A stretch of DNA of 63,075 bases, filler included, from Globobulimina sp. (Eukaryota), in the NCBI GenBank assembly GCA_003354225.1. It is 36 parts of 36 records of this genome, joined end to end, with 100 filler letters (N's around TTAATTAATTAA, not from the genome) between each part and the next. Parts side by side here need not be neighbours in the genome. Positions count along the whole stretch, not along the records: positions 29,846 to 31,500 come from PIVH01013547.1; 35 more parts are not named here. One strand, given 5' to 3'. The notes under the pieces were generated by a model that saw only the letters and a program-made list of their open reading frames with translations, had not been told where the DNA came from and searched no databases. Positions 352 to 61,444 of this stretch are shown here, piece after piece (position 1 is the stretch's first letter; each line of letters starts with the position of its first letter). The translations under genes were made by a program, and so were the position numbers.

Positions 352-1370
352 TTACATACCATATTTATTAATCCGTTTTATTTTTTGTTTTTCAGATTTG
401 CACCATTTGTCCAAATACACTCTCCATTCAGCATCCATATCACATTCAAATTTATCTGGTAATGAATCTTTCTCGTCATCCGACATCTTGTTATACATTG
501 TCAACGTTATCCAAAATGTTTTCTCGAATTGATTCCTGTTTCCTTTCAATTGGAATTCCACCCGATGCCCGTTATAATAATCTGGCTCTCCTTCAATCCC
601 TTTGTTTTTATGGACAATATATGTAAAATATAATCTACCTCCAATTGCATTTGCTGCTGCATCCAATGCCGCTAAATCCAATACTTCAATCTCTTCGAAG
701 TCTAAACGATAAAATAACTGCTTTTTGATATTAATATCTTCGAATAACAATATATCCACACTGCGAATATCTTTTGTTATTTCATATTCATATTGTTTGA
801 ATTGAAGATACTTTTTATGTGTATCTTTCTTATTTGCTATATCTTTGAAAAAAATCGTATCCGTTGATTGCTCAGCACCCGGTTTGAAAGTTGCAGGTAA
901 CGAATATCCAGTATGTGTTATTGTTGTTTTCGGCAAATGTGTGAGTTTCCCCTTTGTATCATTTGATTTTTTCAATATAAACTGCCTCTTTAAATAATAT
1001 TTCGTTTTGTCATCACTGTGCGTAATTTCTTCATCTGTTGGCGCCTTTTGATTTGTCACTATATATTTTACTCCATCCGCTTTCTTTTCACAAATAGCTT
1101 CATCCCACCATTTAACAATTTGATGTACATGGTATAAATTGTGCATTCCGTAATAACCTGTGTATATTATATTAATTTTCAGTTTCAAACTGTATACAAA
1201 TAATTAATACCTGAATTATGCGTAATTTCAAATAATATCATTCTGATAAATGGAATCTTCTCGAAATATTTAATATAACATATTTCAGGGTCGCCAGTTT
1301 CATCCGCCCATACTTTCATAAACATTCGATATGGATTAATTTGTTGTTCGTACACTAATGCAATTGCCAT
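352..1370 (-). CDS. Orphan protein, probably spliced (exons 1370-1211 and 1157-352, ~321 aa)
   Basis: ORFs 1185-1502 and 352-1188 join in frame (..HNSG|YYGM..) by removing a 53-nt GT-AG intron 1158-1210; true start uncertain. Confidence 0.65.
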
Positions 1371-1514
1371 ATTACGCGATTTGATTTGATTTGTCTCGTT
1401 TCCTTCAATTCTCTTTGGCTTCGATAATAGTAAAAAATCTTCGTTTTCTGTATGTATATTTTTTTTATTATTTATTTTCAGTTTGAAACTGAAAATGGAC
1501 AAAAAAATATATTA

Positions 1515-1656
1515 TGTATACAGTTTGAAACTGAAAATGATGAACAATATATTATTTGCATAGTTTGAAACTGAAAACGATGCAAATAATATATATTTTA
1601 TATGACATCAACACTGCGCTGGCGCTGCGCGCCAGCAATGACCGTGAGCGCAGTGT
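1515..1656 (-). repeat. Right terminal inverted repeat with GC-rich hairpin (runs off contig end)
   Basis: Inverted copy of 147-288; ACACTGCGCT...AGCGCAGTGT stem around GCTGGCGCTGCGCGCCAGC. Confidence 0.92.
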
Positions 1657-1756
1657 NNNNNNNNNNNNNNNNNNNNNNNNNNNNNNNNNNNNNNNNNNNN
1701 TTAATTAATTAANNNNNNNNNNNNNNNNNNNNNNNNNNNNNNNNNNNNNNNNNNNN
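1657..1756. other. Artificial contig spacer (first of 35 identical N44-TTAATTAATTAA-N44 linkers)
   Basis: Same 100-bp linker recurs every ~1755 bp; intervening contigs shrink monotonically from 1656 to 1654 bp; TTAATTAATTAA gives stops in all six frames. Confidence 0.99.
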
Positions 1757-2041
1757 TGGGTTTGGTTAGCTGATAATAATAGTAAAAAAACCCATGTCAA
1801 CTCGGCCCGACTCGATCACTAACACCATGTCAACCCGATCCCTACACTCTGACTCGGCTCGGCTCGGCTCTGACTCTGACTCATAAACGACAAAGACTTA
1901 ATATGTACACAAAACAGTCTGTTATTTGTATTATGTAATAACGGCAAATTATATGAAAAATATGATTTACGTTCGCATTCGGCACATCATATCAAGTCAA
2001 TTCTGAGGATTGCATGTTTTCGCGATATTTATATTTCTGAT

Positions 2042-2614
2042 GTGATCTGCAATGACCATGTTACATTTGTAATTACTAAACATGGCCAAGTTTATTATAA
2101 GTCCTCCCTATCCAGCAAAGGTATAGAATTTGGATTGTTTGAAAATTATTGTTCAGAATTTCTAAAATATGAATGTTTTTTGGTTGATGTGAAAATTACA
2201 AAACTAAAATTAGGTTATCGCCACGCGGTTGCTCTGGATGAGAATGGATGTGTTTATCTGTGGGGATGCAATGAATTTGGACAAGTGATGAATGACACAA
2301 ATGAATGTATTTCTAAACCAAAACCATTCAATGATTATATTGAGAAAGCAGTTTCTGTTGCATTTGATTCAATTGTGTTAGGCGGAAATCATAGTTTTAT
2401 AATATCAAAAACAAATAATATTTGCTATGGATTTGGTAATAATAACTATCAGCAATTGAGACTGTACGATGACGCAAAAGCAAATGTAAACGAATTTATT
2501 CCCTCTGCAATTATGGCCACAAGAATGAGCATATTTGAAAAATTGATGAAATATAATGCAAAAGCCAATATATTTGCTATTAAACATCATACATATGTTG
2601 TTGTAGAGCAATGA
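2042..2614 (+). CDS. RCC1/BLIP-II repeat protein (partial)
   Basis: LKLGYRHAVALDENGCVYLWGCNEFGQV and IVLGGNHSFII..CYGFGNNNYQQL RCC1 repeats. Confidence 0.85.
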   Translation: MICNDHVTFVITKHGQVYYKSSLSSKGIEFGLFENYCSEFLKYECFLVDVKITKLKLGYRHAVALDENGCVYLWGCNEFGQVMNDTNECISKPKPFNDYIEKAVSVAFDSIVLGGNHSFIISKTNNICYGFGNNNYQQLRLYDDAKANVNEFIPSAIMATRMSIFEKLMKYNAKANIFAIKHHTYVVVEQ

Positions 2615-3065
2615 GATCATTTTTTGTTGTATTAGATTTGATATAATTATTTTTTGTTTTGAATCTTCCAAACGAGTTGTTCCAGTGATGGGATTTCAAC
2701 TTCGGGGCGGGGTTATTCGCCAAAACAACTCTACGCTTTCCCTGACAATTATGTTGGATTTCATACAAGTGATACAACAAAACAAAACAAAAACACATTA
2801 ACTATTTATTATTTAATTGAAATACATTTATCGTTGGATTAAAACCAAAATTCAACAAAAAAAAGAAAAAATTCAATAAAAAAAACTGACGATAAAGAGG
2901 CTGTCACAAAGACAAATCTATATAATAATACTTTTATTAGTTTTATATATCACAATTCGAAAATTAATACTTGATAATTTATAATTAACTCAACATAATG
3001 TACACAATCACAAAAAAATGTATACAATACATAGGTATAAATTGTATATTATCTCAATTCCCAAA

Positions 3066-3411
3066 TCACCATTGTTTCCTTTGCTGTTGAGGTTGACAAT
3101 ATTGCCCAGGTTGAGGTTGCGCATAAACCACACGTTGTTGCTGAGGTTGCCCATACTGTACTTGTTGGGGTTGTCCATACTGAACTTGCTGAGGTTGTCC
3201 ATATTGAACTTGTTGGGGCTGTGCATAAACTACGCGCTGTGATTGTTGTTGGGGTAATACAATCTGTCGCCCATATTGATCATAAGCCACTCTTCGTTGT
3301 TGTTGATGCGGTTGTGCCAATCTTTGCTGTTGCTGCGGTTGCGCATATTGCACTTGCTGTGGTTGTTGCTGCTGTACATAAACAACACGCGGTTGTTGTT
3401 GTTGTTGCGGC
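3066..3411 (-). CDS. Gln/Pro/Tyr-rich repeat protein C-terminus (5' truncated)
   Basis: Open frame of QQVQYGQP / RVVYAQPQ repeats with synonymous variation, followed by an AT-rich 3' region. Confidence 0.75.
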
Positions 3412-3862
3412 TNNNNNNNNNNNNNNNNNNNNNNNNNNNNNNNNNNNNNNNNNNNNTTAATTAATTAANNNNNNNNNNNNNNNNNNNNNNNNNNNNNNNN
3501 NNNNNNNNNNNNAAATATTAGTTTATATATGAGTTTTTTTATGCAAGTCTGTTTAATTACGTAAAAACAATAACTAACAGTTTGTTTAGAAAACCCAAGT
3601 GTATATTTGGCTTGTTTGTTTGTATATTGTTATTATTTATGCAAAAACAAACAACAACAATGATTCCTAGCAACAGACTGTTTATGACATTGTTTAAAAT
3701 GACTGCGAAAAAGTCCAAGTTTTACGAATATTACAAAACAATATATAAGACATTGTTCAACAAAACACACTATACCCAATATTGTTTTGATACGCTCTTG
3801 CTCGCTGTCTTAATAACAATATTGCATCAAAACAAAAGCAACAGATGGCAATCCTTTAAATT

Positions 3863-5168
3863 TTATGATGTCCAATGTTTTATTCCAATTATATCTTTGT
3901 GTTGCAATTCATAAAAATGATTCAATCGAATATCAAAACATTCCACTTTATATTTATTTGGATACGACAGATCTGCAGCTTTTTGCAACCTATCTCGTGT
4001 ACATTGGTGTAGATATACCTTATTTTCTTCATTTGCTTTGGATTCAACATTTTTATCACTACTCAGTGCTAGAAACTCTTTGTGATGATAAGAATAAGAA
4101 TCAAAAATATCCAGTAACACAGCAGAGAACAATTGGAGCAAAATGGATGGAATGACAATCATTAATGTGATAAAATAGAAATACGGTATTAAACTCCCAA
4201 ACGAATGTTTTCCAAATTCATTACTAAATATCTGTGCATAGCCAAACATAAAAACATGCCAATTATTTGCAATCAAAGCAATAAAACTCTGATGTATGGC
4301 TGCATTGAAAGAATGGAAATTAAATGATTGGAAATATTTATCTGTGAACAGTGGTGAACCCCAGCTGTGACCATCAATGTGTGTCTCATCAATCTGTGAA
4401 AAATTAATTCCAGCAAATAAATCCATTCCAATGGTAGCAAATGAGTACATTGTAAGAACCAAATGGATCAAAATTGGCGAAGATGCTCGTAAGGAATAAA
4501 TCATTGCATTCAAAACTGGATAAATACTGGTTGGAAATGCATATTTTATTAAAAAAACAGCCACAGAAAATAGTCGCAATAATTCTATCGAATCATCCAA
4601 TCGTTCAAATGCTAATTTATCACTGCCAGTGTCTAATATATTTACTGCAATCATAATAAGTGTAATGATGCCGTTCAATAAATGTCTAGATTTGCAGTAA
4701 TGTCTCCAATGAGTTCCACATAAACGGATAAAAATTTCAAACATCCAAATGTAGTCAATCACTGCTAAAGTAATGCTGATATATGGCTGACAATAATCGT
4801 TTGATAATCTTACAAACGTCAATATGCACTGAAAGATAGTAAGTAAATCGAATATCCTTCCAAATAATTGATATTTTATTATTGATTCACATAAAGACAC
4901 AATGTTGCATTTTGAGGCATGAATCTGTAAACATATAATATAAAGAGTTTAAATAAAATCATAAGGTCTTAACTGGAAGTAATTTTATTCGCGTTCCCAA
5001 ATACCACGGTATATAATGAATAAATAGTTTCTCCGTCAAATATCTCTCCCTTGTATTCACATTGTAAATGGAGACCGCATTCCAAATAATCTCTTTTTTC
5101 AAATAACTCAATGTTCCTTTCCCAAAATCACGAGATGAATGCAAAAGTTGTAAATATTGAATCTTTGA
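3863..5168 (-). CDS. Two-pore/voltage-gated cation channel, C-terminal Ion_trans domain (partial)
   Basis: Six hydrophobic segments, YSFATIGMDLFAG and pore SFIALIANNWHVFM typical of TPC domain II; in-frame 49-nt intron 4925-4973. Confidence 0.8.
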
Positions 5169-12292: not shown

Positions 12293-12487
12293 TATTGCTT
12301 AAAAGTACTTCGCATACATTTGAAAATGATGCTTTTGCTCCGAAAAAATAAAATAGAAACACAGCAAATGATATTATGGTTGACATGTTTTTTTTTTTAA
12401 AAAAACTTAAAGTTAAATCCGTGATTATAGCATGGTACATAGAGCCTAGGTTTCCTAAATAGTTGCCGCGCAACTATTTAGTTCCGG
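12293..12487 (+). repeat. Direct terminal repeat, copy 1
   Basis: Matches 13755-13948 except one T in a homopolymer and one A/C; period 1462 bp. Confidence 0.95.
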
Positions 12488-12811: not shown

Positions 12812-13848
12812 TTATACAGATTTATTTAAAATTTCTTCATTTTCAGTTTTATCAATTTGAGATTCAGAATCTGCATAACTTGGAATAGTAAAATATTTTG
12901 AAATCCGCCGTTTAGTGTTACAGGTACAATACCAGACCGTTGCTAAAATAACCAATACATTTACCACAATAATAAGCGCCATAGATATGGTTAAATATGA
13001 TGGAACGAAGGGATTACGGAATATCAACGACGGGATACTTGGAATGGATGCAATCTCACTTGCGGCCACACGAATACATAAAATGGTTGGCGATGATGGA
13101 TTAAGCTGAGCAACCCCGGCGGAACCAGTTATTGCTCCTAATCGAGGAAAAGCAATACTTGATGCGTCTGAACATGCGGTATCGCCATAAACCATAACCC
13201 AGCACGAATCCGGTGATAAACTGGACAATATTGATATCGATGATGGCTTGACCTGAACAGTTGCACCGACATTGCTAAAATAACCATTTGCATCCGCTAC
13301 GATGCTCGAATCGGCTGCCATGTCATGCACTATCTCATCACCGCTATAATCTTCATTTGCAAATAAACTTAATTTACAATCTACACTCGTTGAAGCACTA
13401 TCCGCTTCAACCGCGATTTCAATACAATTTGTGGTACTATCACCTTGGAATATCGCGAGACTTGGAATATCACTACGAACCCGACCATTATGCGCAAAAA
13501 CACTCCCTGCTTTCATAAGACACCCAGAATCTGCATAAAAGGTCACCACACATTTCTTAAGCATCGCCATATTTTGAATAATTACCAGATTTACATTTGT
13601 AGGATACGTTGTTGCCCCGGCAATATACGTAACATAATCACCGGAATCCATCAATCGATGCTGTATATTAATATTATATTATATTTAAATTAGAAATTAA
13701 TTAATTAATATTTGTTATTCATCAACTTAACTTCAACATTACCGGCTAAATTTGTATTGCTTAAAAGTACTTCGCATACATTTGAAAATGATGCTTTTGC
13801 TCCGAAAAAATAAAATAGAAACACAGCAAATGATATTATGGTTGACAT
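12812..13848 (-). CDS. Type I membrane surface protein with two Cys-containing beta-rich (beta/gamma-crystallin-like) repeats; possibly frameshifted
   Basis: Signal-peptide exon MSTIISFAVFLFYFFGAKA (13848-13743), intron 13661-13742, repeats CVVTFYADSGC / CKLSLFANEDYSG / CWVMVYGDTAC, C-terminal TM; obvious splice sites are out of phase by one base. Confidence 0.7.
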
Positions 13849-13948
13849 GTTTTTTTTTTAAAAAAACTTAAAGTTAAATCCGTGATTATAGCATGGTACA
13901 TAGAGCCTAGGTTTCCTAAATAGTTGCCGCGCAACTATTTCGTTCCGG
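13755..13948 (+). repeat. Direct terminal repeat, copy 2
   Basis: Near-identical to 12293-12487. Confidence 0.95.
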
Positions 13949-15451: not shown

Positions 15452-15704
15452 GAACCTATATAAACCTATCAAAACCAATCAAAAACCTATAGAAAACCTA
15501 TAGAAGTATATAGAGTACATGTAGAAACCTATCAAAAGTTATAGAAAACATGTTGAAACCTATCAAAACCTATAGAAAACCTATAGAAACCTATCAAAAA
15601 CATATAGAAACTTTTCAAAAACCTATAGAAAAACTATAGAAAACCTATAAAAACATATCAAAACGTATAGAAACCTATATAAGACCTGTAGAAAAATAAA
15701 CCAA
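15452..15704 (+). repeat. Degenerate 10-11-bp satellite (AAAACCTATAG / AAACCTATCA)
   Basis: More than 20 imperfect tandem units running to the contig end. Confidence 0.9.
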
Positions 15705-29845: not shown

Positions 29846-30008
29846 CAGTCTCTTCAGTTCTAGCCGAGATTGGATTTTTAAACTACGATAGCGGTTTATA
29901 TACGAAACATCTATGTAACATATGCATATGCTATCTTAGTTTAAAAGCAATCTCAAAAACAACAGGCGATTTTACAATAAAAAATAAAAAATAAAATCAT
30001 ATATATAG
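29846..30008 (+). repeat. Conserved hairpin element, copy A (5' part cut by contig start)
   Basis: Stem GAGATTG/CAATCTC, TTTTAAACTA/TAGTTTAAAA, GATAGC/GCTATC (29866-29954); ends AAAATAAAATCATATATATAG. Confidence 0.9.
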
Positions 30009-30335
30009 ACATTAGACGTCGTTTGCAGCATATTGGAATGGATTAAAATCAAGATCTAGAAAATAATTTGCGTAATATTGCGATTAATGTTAATGCCGCA
30101 AATATGATGGGTACGGCCCAAGGGCCAGATATATTTTCAAGCCTTAATTGCCAACAATCTGTACTATACCAATGCGGCACAGCTAATTGAAACCACCATG
30201 AACGATTTTCATCGCATATTGGTCGTAAATACCAATTATTTGACTATTATGGCGCAGAGAATGCAGATCGATGCGTGGTTTTGATGGGGAGTGGCAGCGA
30301 TACGGTGGAACAAACCATCAACGAACTCAATAAGC
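30009..30335 (+). pseudogene. Pyruvate:ferredoxin oxidoreductase (PFOR/PNO) internal fragment, decayed
   Basis: Across frames: MMGTAQGPDIF-FQALIANNLYY..IETTMNDF-GRKYQLFDYYGAENADRCVVLMGSGSDTVEQTINELN; one stop and two frameshifts; missed by the ORF track. Confidence 0.85.
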
Positions 30336-31324
30336 CATTTTATTGGCAAATAACGGGAAATGCCAAAATGAGAAATATAAGTTATTGACATGCGCATTAC
30401 GGCCACACTGCGTATTTGTGCCTCGCGATACACATTTATATGTCAAACACAGACCTCAAAGATAAACCAGTCTTCGTATCACCTCTGAACTCTTTCCACT
30501 TAATTTCCCGAGATTTCACGAGCAGGTATACAACAACATACAATAAAAACAGATACAGAAATAAATACTAATTCAAATCAAAAACATATTTCAACACGTG
30601 ACATTTATGAATTATTAACTCGTCACTGGTTCAAATTATATTTATTTATTGGTAACAACGATAATTTATTCCCTCATTCCAATGAATGGATTGGTGTCGC
30701 TAAGAATTGGTTTCTATACATCCATATTAATAAATGACCAATCAATATATATTTGGCACAGTTATTCTCAGTACAATGGACAGACATTAATTATCATTAG
30801 TACTGAAAGAATTTAGTTTACATGTAGCAAAACAGTGAAAAATAATTATTTAAATGCAAATGCTTTTTTATAGTTTGTCACGCTGTCATTGCCATTACAA
30901 CATAACATTTGCAGCTAGATATAAGTGTGTTTTGTTGTGTTATTTTGTCAATTTTGTTTGTTTAATATGTTTTTTTTCATGTTTTCTGCGTGTTTACACT
31001 GTTGCTTTCCATTTGTATGCATTCAAAATATATAGTCAAGCGTATACAAATCTCGGGAAGATATGATAGAATTGTTTAAATATTTATGTTAGATGCATCC
31101 ATAATATAATATTGGATGTTTAGAATTTTTTTTCATATGAACGCCTTGCTACTATGTTGTTTTTTACAACTGTGTGCAGTGAGCATTTTGAAGCGAAAAT
31201 TGTTTGATCAATGCCTGGATATTGTATACAAATACGTCCATTGCCTTGAATGTTTATCCATTAATTTGATGAGTTCAGTCATAAATAAAACTAGACATTC
31301 CTTTTGGTGTAAAGAAGTTGAATG

Positions 31325-31500
31325 AATTGACTAGATCCAACTAAGTTCGGAACCTTAACATGTTAGACCATGTCACTTTTACAGTCTCTTCAGTTCTAGC
31401 CGAGATTGGATTTTTAAACTACGATAGCGGTTTATATACGAAACATCTATGTAACATATGCATATGCTATCTTAGTTTAAAAGCAATCTCAAAAACAACA
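31325..31500 (+). repeat. Conserved hairpin element, copy B
   Basis: 31382-31500 is identical to 29846-29964 (119 bp); 31325-31381 aligns with the copy at 61255-61311. Confidence 0.9.
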
Positions 31501-41915: not shown

Positions 41916-42224
41916 CTGTATTGTTATAGGTGTTACTAATTTGATTTTCGATACAAAAAGCAAACACATCACGAACAGAAAGATTTATTAACGAAACAGA
42001 GTGTAAATGTAATAAAACAGATAGATANNNNNNNNNNNNNNNNNNNNNNNNNNNNNNNNNNNNNNNNNNNNTTAATTAATTAANNNNNNNNNNNNNNNNN
42101 NNNNNNNNNNNNNNNNNNNNNNNNNNNTTATTAATTAATCCACGCTCTCAGCAAGCAATTGACTAGGTGCTTTTTGAAGTTTTAAGTATTAGTACTTAGA
42201 AAAAAGTTAGTTAGCAGGAGTCAA

Positions 42225-42430
42225 TTTGGTATATAAATATGGTTATATTATAGGTTAGGGGTTAATCCAATTGGTATAACAATATGGTTATATTATAGGT
42301 TAGGGGTTAATCCATTTGGTATATAAATTTGAATATATTATGTGTTGGTGGTTAACCCACTTGATATACAGTTGTGAATATACTGTGAGTTCTGGATTCA
42401 GTCATTGTGCAAGTAATATGAATATATAAT
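42225..42430 (+). repeat. 45-bp minisatellite, ~4.5 progressively diverging units
   Basis: TTGGTATATAAATATGGTTATATTATAGGTTAGGGGTTAATCCA units at ~42226, 42271, 42316, 42361. Confidence 0.75.
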
Positions 42431-43881: not shown

Positions 43882-45535
43882 ACGAATTTTATCCAAACGA
43901 TTACAAGCATTCTGTGTTGAAAATAACATATTCAACAATGATTAACAGAACGATTAATGCAAGAATTAGTCGCTACCGCCAGATCTGATATTATTGATGA
44001 TATATATTTTGATAGAAACGATAAAGAGCATAAGTTCAGAGTGCGAGAAAACAGATTTGATAGATACAAATTCTGGGCACCAAAAACCGAATGCGGTATT
44101 ATATATCGAGATAACTTAGATATAACAAGATTGAATGACTTTATCCCTATTACACAATGTAGAGAATCAAATATTGCGATTTGCGGTATCTTAATACACA
44201 CCAAACATAAACCAATTGCTATATACTCATACTACAGACCCCCGAGATACGGAGATGGATCACAACTATTCCAATTTAAATATGAAGGAGAAAAAGTAAT
44301 ACTTGGAGGTGATCTAAATTTGCATCATGAAAACTGGGGAAGCAATCATCATAATAAGTCGTCAATCAAATTTACCGATTTATTATCCCAATCAGAATTC
44401 CAATGCATAAATACAAACTCACCGACCCGGTGCGATCCGACTAATCCCACTCATGAATCAAATATATACATTTCAATGGTATCAAACAATACAAAAACAA
44501 CCAATTGGCAATCTATAAATCACAGAAATAAAAAATTGTCAGATCACTATCTAATTAAATTTGATGTGGAGCTTGAACCGCAATTTGGCTTTAATTTCAA
44601 TCGAAAAGTTTGGAATTTAAACTCCAAAAAATGGAAAGAATACACAAAACAGTTACAAAAAAGCACAGTGAAACTGCAGGAATTCGTCAACCATAATAAA
44701 AAAGTACTAAATAAAAACCCGAATAATCATAAACTACATAGAAAAATCCTTAATGAATTAACAGGAAACATCTCCCAATCAATAATAAATACTGCAAACA
44801 GTACCATCGGCAAAAAATCATATTATAATGGATATAAACCATGGTGGAATAATAAAATAAGTAAATTACAAAAGAAAGCCCGTAAATGGGAAAATAAGAA
44901 AAATAAATTTAGAAATAAAATAAAAAATGCACCAAATAACTCAACACGAGAAAATATATTCAAATATGAATTTGAAAAAGCAAATAAAAATTATAAACGA
45001 TTACGAAACCAGAAACTTAGAGAGATTAAAAAAGCAAAATTAGCATATTACAAAAAGCTAAATCACCAAATCCAACACGCTAAATCTCACTCGCGTATAT
45101 TTTACAGAGCATTAAAACAGAAAAATTACAGAAATGCCAACATAATCCCTCCAATAATAAAAAATGATCAATTAGAAACTACAAATGACCCCATTGAACA
45201 AGCAACATTAATCCATCAACATATATGTAATCCACCTAAACCAACATTTTCCCCACAACACATTAACTACCATCATACAGTTAACCACAATGCTAATGCC
45301 ATAATCAATGACATAAATTCCAATCATCCAAACCTTACCCGAAACCCCAATGATTTGCTGAATTCTATAATCCAATTCTATGAAGTCCGGAACTGTGCGG
45401 CAGAGCTGGACACAGACAAAGCAATTGGCACTGACGACATCCATAATAAAATGTTAATATTTGGAAAGGCTCCGTTATTTAGGATCCTTACCCAACTTTT
45501 TAATCTTTGTTTGAAATACCATGTATTTCCAAAAC
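43882..45535 (+). mobile_element. Non-LTR retrotransposon ORF2 (APE endonuclease to start of RT), partial
   Basis: YSYYRPP, ILGGDLNLHH..WGS, SPTR, LSDHYLI, KPWWN, KAIGTDDIHNKML..LFNLCL..VFP in one open frame. Confidence 0.93.
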
Positions 45536-59567: not shown

Positions 59568-60154
59568 NNNNNNNNNNNNNNNNNNNNNNNNNNNNNNNNN
59601 NNNNNNNNNNNTTAATTAATTAANNNNNNNNNNNNNNNNNNNNNNNNNNNNNNNNNNNNNNNNNNNNTGATTTAAAGATTCGTGATGTTTTAAATTCGTG
59701 ATGTATAGAATATTACATTCATACGCCCATAGGCTATAAACAGGCAGTGTTTCAAAAACGAAATGTTTTGAATTCAAACTGAAATTTTAAAAACAATGTG
59801 TTTCAAACAGGTCCTATTCTAAAGTAGTACCGAAGGGCTTTAGCTGGATGCGTTCTAAAAAGTGATTCTTGCATAAAATTATTATACTCATAAATAACAA
59901 TAAAAAGCATAGGGAATTGTATAACACAGCATAATATATATATCCTTGCATGTTATATAACTGTTTGATTGGTATTTTATGAAATATATATATATGTTTT
60001 TTTTTATATACAATTACAAAAGTATACAAACATATACAACAGAAACACAAACAAAAAATAGTTTTTTATGATTTGGCCGTATTATTTGGCTGTATTATTT
60101 GATTATTGGCCGTAATATTGGCCGTAGCCGTGATATTATTAATAGGCGTGATAT

Positions 60155-61092
60155 TGCCCATTTACACGCATATTTCGATTCTTGCTGCTTCCATAACAAT
60201 GGCAAAGAAACCAACCAGTATCAAAATGGCAAAGAAACCAACCAGTTCCACCTCGACATTGCCGGTCGTAAACTGGTAGACTTGGAAGAAAGTGCCAACC
60301 GAAGCTAACGGGATCATATATTGCGTAAAAGACACCAAAAATAAAAAATAATACGCGAGTTTCTCGCCATAATAGTCACGCAAACCGGCCAAAGGGATTT
60401 GAAATATGGTTGAGACGGACGTACATTTTATCGTTGACCATATTTGCTGATAAAGGTCTGCCAATACATCGTATTCATGGCATGGGAAGGCGTCCATTAA
60501 CGCGTTGTTTTCGTCTTTGATGCGTTTCTCAATCTCATCCATTGGCAGCGACGACATGTAGCCATTGTTCATTGTGGAGGATAAGTTGGACTGAAATGAG
60601 AATTTGGATGCGAACCACTTCCCTGAAGATGGAACCTTGTGAGATATCACGCGAATACATATTGTCGTCGGTAGCGATATGAAACCGGTCTTTTGCGTAC
60701 GATTCGTCATAGCCATAACCATATTTTCTATAAAATTTATAGATTTCCTCGTTTACGTATTGTGAGTAATAGCGAAAGTATAAATCCCTCCAACATTGGA
60801 GGTTGAATTGACGATTTTCAGTGGCAGCGTCATGTGTGGCTTGCGCTAATTTGTTATCTATCAATAATAGCCACTCAACAATCAAATTGGGGTCTAAATT
60901 GAGCGGATATTCTAATTTATCGTGGATTGCCACCAAATTATATGCAATCAAATCATTTTTTGGTGTTGCTGTGGCTGTGGATTGCCACCACAATTTCTCA
61001 TTTTTGGAGCATGCGTATCATGGCAGAGGCTTTATCCATAAAACTATATTCCTTTTCATCCATTATAATATGTCCTCGATGACTTCTTGGTC
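60155..61092 (-). pseudogene. Anoctamin/TMEM16 N-terminal fragment, decayed
   Basis: SIFREVVRIQIL, AFPCHE, QIPLAGLRDYYGEKLAYYFLFL, WKQQE in shifted frames; internal short duplications; truncated after TM2. Confidence 0.82.
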
Positions 61093-61311
61093 CTATATAT
61101 ATGATTTTATTTTTGCTTTTTTTTTATTTTTTGTGGCAAAATCGCCTGTTGTTTTTGAGATTGCTTTTAAACTAATATAGCATATGCTTATGTTACATAG
61201 ATGTTTAAAAACTGCTATCGTAGTTTAAAAATCCAATCTCGGCTAGAAGTGACTGTAAAAGTGACATGATTCAAAATTGCAAGGCTCTGCACTTAGTTGA
61301 CATTAGTCAAT
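61093..61311 (-). repeat. Conserved hairpin element, copy C (diverged)
   Basis: Reverse complement aligns to 31325-31500 plus 29965-30008, including the ATCATATATATAG end; stems preserved, one loop shortened. Confidence 0.9.
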
Positions 61312-61444
61312 TTACAAATCTNNNNNNNNNNNNNNNNNNNNNNNNNNNNNNNNNNNNNNNNNNNNTTAATTAATTAANNNNNNNNNNNNNNNNNNNNNNN
61401 NNNNNNNNNNNNNNNNNNNNNGGAGATTAGAGTAAATGAGGACT

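Follow-up and report, generated by a model that had tools for sequence, protein, structure and literature searches.

The repeat examined here is most likely the 5' module (module A), with its hairpin, of a family of mobile elements that has many copies in a foraminifer-like genome. Two copies of it lie in the window, the 63,075-nt stretch of joined Globobulimina sp. contigs that we analysed, and a third was found outside it. The copies have a common anatomy in which three or four different cargos of gene pieces keep the same order and orientation relative to module A, and in which module A and a second repeat, module B, are present in many copies as against cargo that is represented by a single contig. 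One copy of such an element would consist of module A, a cargo of decayed host-gene pieces and, in two of the three copies, module B. The explanation we favor, with slightly less than even confidence, is that the captured gene fragments are carried by a non-autonomous transposon whose two ends differ and which follows a DNA-level route of Helitron-like design.

The window is AT-rich and consists of 36 unlinked contigs of 1654-1656 bp each, sorted by length and joined by N/TTAATTAATTAA spacers. The genome is gene-dense: an open frame of at least 100 codons is present in 34 of the 36 contigs, many uninterrupted frames reach 400-550 codons, and 16 of 62 long frames match eukaryotic Pfam families at E ≤0.001. 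Because nearly every contig contains a frame of this size, a repeat that adjoins coding sequence is the base rate in this window.

Several other features of the window were observed along the way. A 531-codon open frame at 43942-45534 has an endonuclease-reverse-transcriptase domain (Exo_endo_phos_2, E 3.3e-13) and is a fragment of a LINE-type retrotransposon, and a 551-codon frame that fills its contig (24581-26233) has a weak, sub-threshold match to the RdRP family PF05183 (E 3.3e-4, 19.9 bits against a cut-off of 23.8). The contig at 1-1656 is bounded by inverted repeats of about 190 nt (147-336 and 1468-1656, 90% identity) with AGTTTGAAACTGAAAAT-type subrepeats, which enclose a 283-codon frame (355-1203, minus strand) with no Pfam match; this contig may be a TIR or foldback element. 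The contig at 12293-13948 carries a 195-nt direct repeat at both ends (12293-12487 and 13755-13948, 99% identity) around a 288-codon frame with no Pfam match, and its end repeats may reflect a tandem unit, LTR-like ends or one more assembly path that is nearly closed. Tandem arrays occupy 15453-15704, with AACCTATAGAAA-type units of about 10-11 nt and nested periods of 31 and 52, and 42176-42400, with four copies of a 45-nt unit.

Module A and its hairpin

The first copy of module A lies on the contig at 29846-31500. Its 5' part, placed by alignment (31323-31500, plus strand), continues to the end of the contig, where the sequence is the same as at the contig start; the rest of the module follows at 29846-30069 (plus strand), where family sequence continues for about 61 nt past an AG at 30007-30008. 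The second copy, at 61030-61314 (minus strand), begins with its 5' boundary TAAATTGAC at 61314, has its AG at 61094-61093 and continues as family sequence to about 61030. The 29-nt and 36-nt cores of the module match exactly at these places, with no match in 100 shuffles, which confirms the existence of the repeat as reported in an earlier note on this DNA. That note had counted three occurrences in the window. There are two, however, since the segment at 29846-29964 (plus strand) is an exact copy of 31382-31500, 119 nt long and free of mismatches; identical ends of this kind are the signature that a de Bruijn assembler leaves when a path closes, and the first two "copies" are therefore one. 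The contig is therefore self-closing, with a unit of 1536 bp that may represent a tandem array, a circle or a mere loop in the assembly graph. The rest of this unit (30463-31322, no strand assigned) has no family, repeat or protein match, and a 77-residue frame within it (30504-30734) found no relative among 1.84 billion representatives.

The two window copies of module A are 85% identical (177 of 208 positions). A third, independent copy was the sole locus returned by one scan of metagenome contigs and lies on a contig of 1517 nt, L001. Scans of genome-contig and viral-contig collections returned no further copy of module A, and nhmmer profiles of modules A and B found no extra copy in the 36 window contigs. 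The anatomy described here is thus read from three copies, none of which has both outer ends on its contig. In all three, the 5' boundary is sharp and reads T(A/G)AATTGAC, as TGAATTGAC at 31323 in the self-closing copy, at 61314 on the minus strand and at position 398 of L001. The 300 nt upstream of this boundary are unrelated between L001 and the self-closing contig (local score 17 against 14.3 ± 2.2, p 0.14). Three copies that share a sharp 5' boundary below unrelated upstream flanks support a mobile family. Module A measures about 285 bp and extends from T(A/G)AATTGAC to about 60 nt beyond the AG.

The position of this AG matters for how the module is understood. All three copies retain a tail of the form AAAATAAAATC(AT)nAG; the two window copies do not differ in it (AAAATAAAATCATATATATAG), as the earlier note had recognized, and L001 has the same tail with a longer (AT)n. 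The note went on to place coding sequence straight after the AG, and here our results differ. The first 45 nt past the AG are still family sequence, with 26, 36 and 23 of 45 positions identical in the three copy pairs against 12 ± 3 for random placements. In local alignments, the family homology of the self-closing contig extends to about +61 (30069), and that of the other two copies reaches +63 or beyond; past +63, homology between L001 and the anoctamin-bearing copy is not significant (p 0.14). Detectable gene homology begins only at 30071 (62 nt past the AG), at 60921 (172 nt) and at position 711 of L001 (93 nt), and stop codons are present between the AG and these points. With the AG some 60 nt within the family, the apparent acceptor-like tail in front of coding sequence reflects a misplaced boundary; the AG marks no junction and is not a splice acceptor. 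We also considered the short frame after the AG of the anoctamin contig as an anoctamin N-terminus and rejected it, as tblastn E values there were only 5.7-9.6.

The conserved core of module A is an 89-nt hairpin at 29866-29954 (plus strand; the same bases as 31402-31490), with its counterpart in the second window copy placed by folding at 61157-61240 (minus strand). The hairpin spans 89 alignment columns in all three copies and lies about 80 nt inside the 5' end of the module. Its predicted RNA fold has an energy of -44.6 kcal/mol (z -3.1), its DNA fold a z of -3.8, and none of 200 shuffles did better in either case, in agreement with the stem described in the earlier note. Across the three copies, 3 of 68 paired columns vary, compared with 7 of 21 unpaired columns of the hairpin (Fisher p 0.0012) and 40 of 92 columns outside it (p 6.5e-9), so the claim that divergence spares the stems is upheld as well. 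Covariation, which the note had proposed to look for, did not appear: among the 38 base pairs 33 are invariant, two changed on one side, one is broken and none is compensatory, a comparison of three sequences with low power. The stems show sequence conservation, not covariation.

Searches for a known RNA or signal in the element gave nothing. Modules A and B have no Rfam match at the gathering score or up to an E value of 1, ARAGORN found nothing tRNA-like on the element, and a scan for bacterial promoters and terminators, which is not meaningful for a eukaryote, returned no match. A tRNA-like A box in TAGCCGAGATTGG had been spotted by eye only; no tool supports it and we dropped it. The 5' arm of the hairpin contains a run of five T, and a run of this length would stop RNA polymerase III.

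Cargo, module B and copy abundance

Downstream of module A, all three copies carry decayed and internally broken pieces of unrelated genes, and all four pieces have the same orientation as module A. In the self-closing copy, a fragment of a pyruvate:ferredoxin oxidoreductase (PFOR) occupies 30071-30334 (plus strand) and corresponds to about residues 200-292 of bacterial-type PFORs, as judged by tblastn with 11 PFORs (P0003-P0013); against residues 247-289 of PDB 1b0p its E value is 1.6e-7. The middle of this piece is out of frame and the end is back in the first frame, which amounts to two compensating shifts. The frame is lost and regained about 80 nt further on, within 30135-30215, and both shifts fall at runs of four T; they could be two compensating indels or two homopolymer errors. 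The PFOR piece ends at 30334 and is abutted by a second fragment, similar to 3-beta-HSD/epimerase, that starts at 30337 and extends to 30462 (plus strand; PF01073, positions 157-191 of 280, E 3.6e-6, 26.7 bits against a cut-off of 22). This fragment was the sole match above cut-off when 43 further short frames of the three contigs were compared with Pfam.

In the second window copy, module A is followed by a spacer (60922-61029, minus strand) in which a 14-nt sequence is exactly repeated 55 nt apart, at 60922-60935 and 60977-60990, and where one contig of run X1 has a 50-nt joint that "goes back". An anoctamin fragment follows at 60155-60921 (minus strand), corresponding to residues 152-411 of P0001 in three frames. 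It has an 8-nt gap near 60605, and 27 nt are duplicated in tandem at 60193-60246. Contigs of runs X2-X4, the last of which comes from a related organism, contain an intact version of this gene that is about 96% identical to the window piece and has 8 more letters at 60605 and 5 more near 60204-60213, where the window frames switch. The intact version departs from the window sequence at 60921 and 60157, and its loose ends, as read by eye, continue the protein. In run X1 we found only the broken anoctamin copy, and X2 and X3, from the same sample, carry the intact version; this hole in X1 proves nothing. The PFOR and anoctamin fragments of the earlier note are accordingly real, frameshifted and broken off.

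In the third copy, the sequence after module A is again a decayed gene piece, so that the association seen in the window extends to a further copy. This cargo derives from a Maestro-type HEAT protein, is 71-77% identical to P0014-P0017 and covers positions 711-1087 of L001 in three frames and then 1163-1336. The piece omits about 200 internal residues, and the sequences on either side of this skip abut at 1083-1087. Cargo and protein are collinear over 765 nt in the anoctamin piece and about 390 nt in the HEAT piece, and no intron was seen; cargo is collinear with contigs of X2-X4 as well. No part of the cargo genes was detected by tblastn upstream of module A in the two copies that have an upstream flank.

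Module B, the second many-copy repeat, occupies 59668-60058 (minus strand) of the window and shares its start with L001 1430-1517: this stretch of L001 aligns with 60045-59958 of the window at 83% identity over 89 nt (E 2.7e-19). The module runs to the contig end in both. Two of the three copies share the arrangement of module A, cargo and module B, both in order and in orientation, with an A-to-B spacing of about 740 nt in L001 and about 970 nt in the window; no module B was detectable in the self-closing copy by similarity or by nhmmer profile searches. Stutter repeats made of 13-14-nt units that resemble the last bases of the anoctamin piece lie between cargo and module B at 60059-60154 (minus strand). 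The window copy of module B is cut at 60058. Contigs of run X1 have a loose end at this position whose reverse complement is an exact match to L001 1420-1441 and does not occur in the window, and module B extends at least 22 nt further upstream in L001 and the X1 contigs than in the window copy. The inner breakpoints thus vary from copy to copy, both for module B and for module A, whose family sequence stops at about +61 in the self-closing copy and no earlier than +63 in the other two.

The known part of module B folds no better than shuffles (z -1.0). Between it and module A there is no inverted similarity, and the two are unlike in either orientation. We discarded an LTR interpretation, with module A as the LTR and a primer-binding site behind it, given that A and B differ and that a TGG-like motif after module A is not conserved. 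Module B has the look of a composite, as its depth is uneven and loose ends occur within it. Within it, a stretch of 42 nt (59784-59826) occurs in many contigs of X2, X3 and X4 with different flanks and a high summed depth; this is a short and very abundant repeat in its own right, with no Rfam match.

Copy abundance was assessed in run X1, which looks DNA-like and in which 338 records were compared over the whole 1654-nt stretch; hundreds of repeat contigs cover modules A and B. Summed word depth, which is not a copy number, reaches 2000-3300 over module A (61124-61291) and 1500-4000 over module B, and the anoctamin piece is covered by one 837-nt contig with a depth of 7.3. The depth summed over A and B, set against this one contig, points to a large family with a single-looking cargo and bears out the high copy number that the earlier note had suspected. 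The family majority letters at 61133 and 61135 are present in 19 X1 contigs and in the self-closing copy; the second window copy differs. Cover of A and B in X2-X4 is thin or missing, and because the kinds of runs X1-X4 are off record, this has no bearing on expression.

Origin of the element

The transposon we favor would use modules A and B as cis-acting ends and the invariant hairpin in module A as a recognition signal for the copying machinery. Its cargo would be acquired through template switching during DNA-level copying of the element, and the self-closing 1536-bp contig would represent a tandem or circular form of one copy. An asymmetric-end design is suggested by the lack of resemblance between A and B, and a Helitron-like DNA-level route is favored by these unlike ends together with gene pieces that lie side by side, a conserved stem-loop, a self-closing contig and the presence of cargo in every copy. 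The earlier note had proposed a capture element of Helitron or Pack type. The capture part of this proposal is strengthened by the third copy, by the second fragment behind PFOR, by the co-orientation of the pieces and by module B. Several observations argue against the transposon we favor. Among the three copies that could be read, none shows both outer ends; the 5' end does not start with the TC of canonical Helitrons; cargo looks single in X1, so that no amplification after capture is evident; the self-closing copy has no detectable module B; and intron-free, collinear cargo would fit an RNA origin too.

This last point leads to the alternative that we take most seriously and regard as possible but rather doubtful, namely that the copies are chimeric retrocopies. 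Reverse transcriptase would start on the RNA of a retroelement, of which module B would be the 3' part, jump to one or more host mRNAs and finally to module A, either an abundant RNA or the element's own 5' region, copied to the 5' end of the RNA. Direct fusion of co-oriented parts is what such jumps would leave, and module A, the four gene pieces and module B are all co-oriented, with hardly any filler at the fusion of the PFOR (30334) and HSD-like (30337) pieces and with the sides of the HEAT skip abutting at L001 1083-1087. The absence of visible introns over the 765 and about 390 collinear nucleotides of cargo, the apparent uniqueness of each cargo, the stutter repeats at the junction with module B and the LINE-type endonuclease/reverse-transcriptase frame in the window (43942-45534) are consistent with it as well. 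Missing introns say little, however, in a window with so many uninterrupted frames of 400-550 codons, and module B matches no family, which makes it only a putative retroelement 3' end. The 5' parts of LINEs are usually rarer than their 3' parts, yet the summed depths of A and B in X1 are similar, as far as sums that are not copy numbers can be compared. A precedent exists in Magnaporthe, where bipartite and tripartite chimeras combine a non-coding RNA, a SINE and a LINE 3' part, but only 1 of 34 chimeras in that survey is tripartite (PMC2104539), whereas here cargo follows module A in all three copies.

We think it unlikely that A and B are ordinary dispersed repeats, SINE- or MITE-like, in rearranged DNA rich in pseudogenes, and that module A, cargo and module B do not move as a unit. 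In such DNA, the long palindrome of module A may favor breaks and template switching during repair, with gene debris accumulating alongside. The gene density of the genome, with a frame of at least 100 codons in 34 of the 36 window contigs, fits such a setting, the end of homology between +55 and +63 after the AG in all three copies means that module A could be a discrete element of about 285 bp, and the composite make-up of module B, with its uneven depth and internal loose ends, agrees with a patchwork. Against this, two of three copies repeat the order, orientation and similar spacing of A and B, each of the four gene pieces shares its orientation with module A, and these pieces start in mid-protein where the family sequence or a short spacer stops, with no part of the same gene across module A.

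A structured non-coding RNA gene family, whose functional product would be the hairpin and to which the gene pieces would be bystanders, is very improbable. The fold surpasses all shuffles and conservation of the stems far exceeds that of loops and flanks, as expected of such a family; on the other side stand the absence of covariation at 38 pairs (three sequences, low power), the lack of any Rfam match up to E 1 or of anything tRNA-like, and the five-T run in the 5' arm, an RNA polymerase III stop. The linked module B and the co-oriented cargo would also be left unexplained. Least tenable of all is the introner-like mobile intron that the earlier note had offered, in which the element or its 3' half ends at the AG and the gene piece is the next exon: the AG-ending tail is indeed present in all three copies, but the two available upstream flanks are unrelated and do not continue the same gene, family homology runs on for about 60 nt so that the ends do not match splice sites, stop codons precede the gene homology, and neither AG nor GT stands at the limits of the anoctamin homology (60921 and about 60151).

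The capture of gene fragments by transposons is well documented for plants and for some animals; it creates chimeric transcripts, pseudogene noise and cross-talk of small RNAs. For Foraminifera or Rhizaria, our literature search turned up no paper on the subject. A family with many copies and with mosaics of host-gene pieces between its modules would help to explain the load of truncated gene copies in the assembly, and it carries a warning for annotation, as PFOR-, anoctamin- and HEAT-like matches that adjoin the repeat are debris and not genes. The ends of the family could be used to trace the movement of gene pieces in these genomes, and the element may also mark a variant mechanism of transposition. 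The capture transposon can be taken further, to a hairpin-guided foraminiferal element of rolling-circle type, with ends unlike those of canonical Helitrons, that picks up a new host-gene piece in almost every round of copying and whose circular or tandem replication form is the 1536-bp contig. We consider this extended version quite improbable; if true, the family would shuffle gene fragments at high frequency, and would do so in a lineage about whose transposons very little has been learned.

Relation to known systems

Introners are spliceosomal introns derived from transposons. Like them, the element is multi-copy, forms a hairpin, contains a sequence ending in AG and adjoins coding sequence, but it does not have one gene on both sides, and its AG is internal to the repeat and followed by stop codons. 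Pack-MULEs and other Pack-type TIR transposons are reportedly non-autonomous elements whose conserved ends bracket captured fragments of host genes. The roughly constant inner boundaries of the ends and the differing cargo recall this design. The parts of A and B present on the contigs are unlike in either orientation, however, and so contain no terminal inverted repeats, and all cargo is co-oriented; we therefore rejected a Pack-type TIR transposon over the sequence available on the contigs.

Chimeric retrogenes provide a second comparison. Mammalian U6-L1 chimeras are said to be one case of LINE template switching. In Magnaporthe, WEIRD-MGL and the tripartite WEIRD-SINE-MGL are described as chimeric retrogenes that arose by the same process (PMC2104539). 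A 5' part with a fixed start, directly fused and co-oriented transcript copies and a 3' part derived from a repeat are features that these chimeras share with our element. The differences are that host-gene cargo is present here in every copy, that the 5' part is not a known RNA and that neither flanking direct repeats nor a tail is seen, the outer ends being off the contigs.

The architecture recalls that of Helitrons, although details of the ends set the element apart. Canonical Helitrons (HLE1) start with TC at the 5' end and have a short hairpin just before their 3' CTRR (PMC11417382); here, all three copies start with T(A/G)AATTGAC, and the 89-nt hairpin lies about 80 nt inside the 5' end. 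Canonical Helitrons insert between A and T and leave no target-site duplication; the base before the 5' boundary is T, A and G in the three copies here, and no 3' flank is on the contigs. For HLE2, with TIRs of about 12-16 nt and insertion between T and T, we found no inverted similarity between module A and the known part of module B, whose outer end is missing, and a T before the boundary in one copy of three. Because the 5' end lacks TC, and the outer 3' end and insertion site lie beyond the contigs, we do not class the element as a Helitron. In maize, over ninety percent of the Helitrons identified carry gene fragments (PMC3288121), and those elements resemble ours in their unlike conserved ends, their mosaics of several host-gene pieces, a stem-loop near one end and their many copies. 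A closed or tandem form, as the self-closing contig may be, would likewise fit rolling-circle copying.
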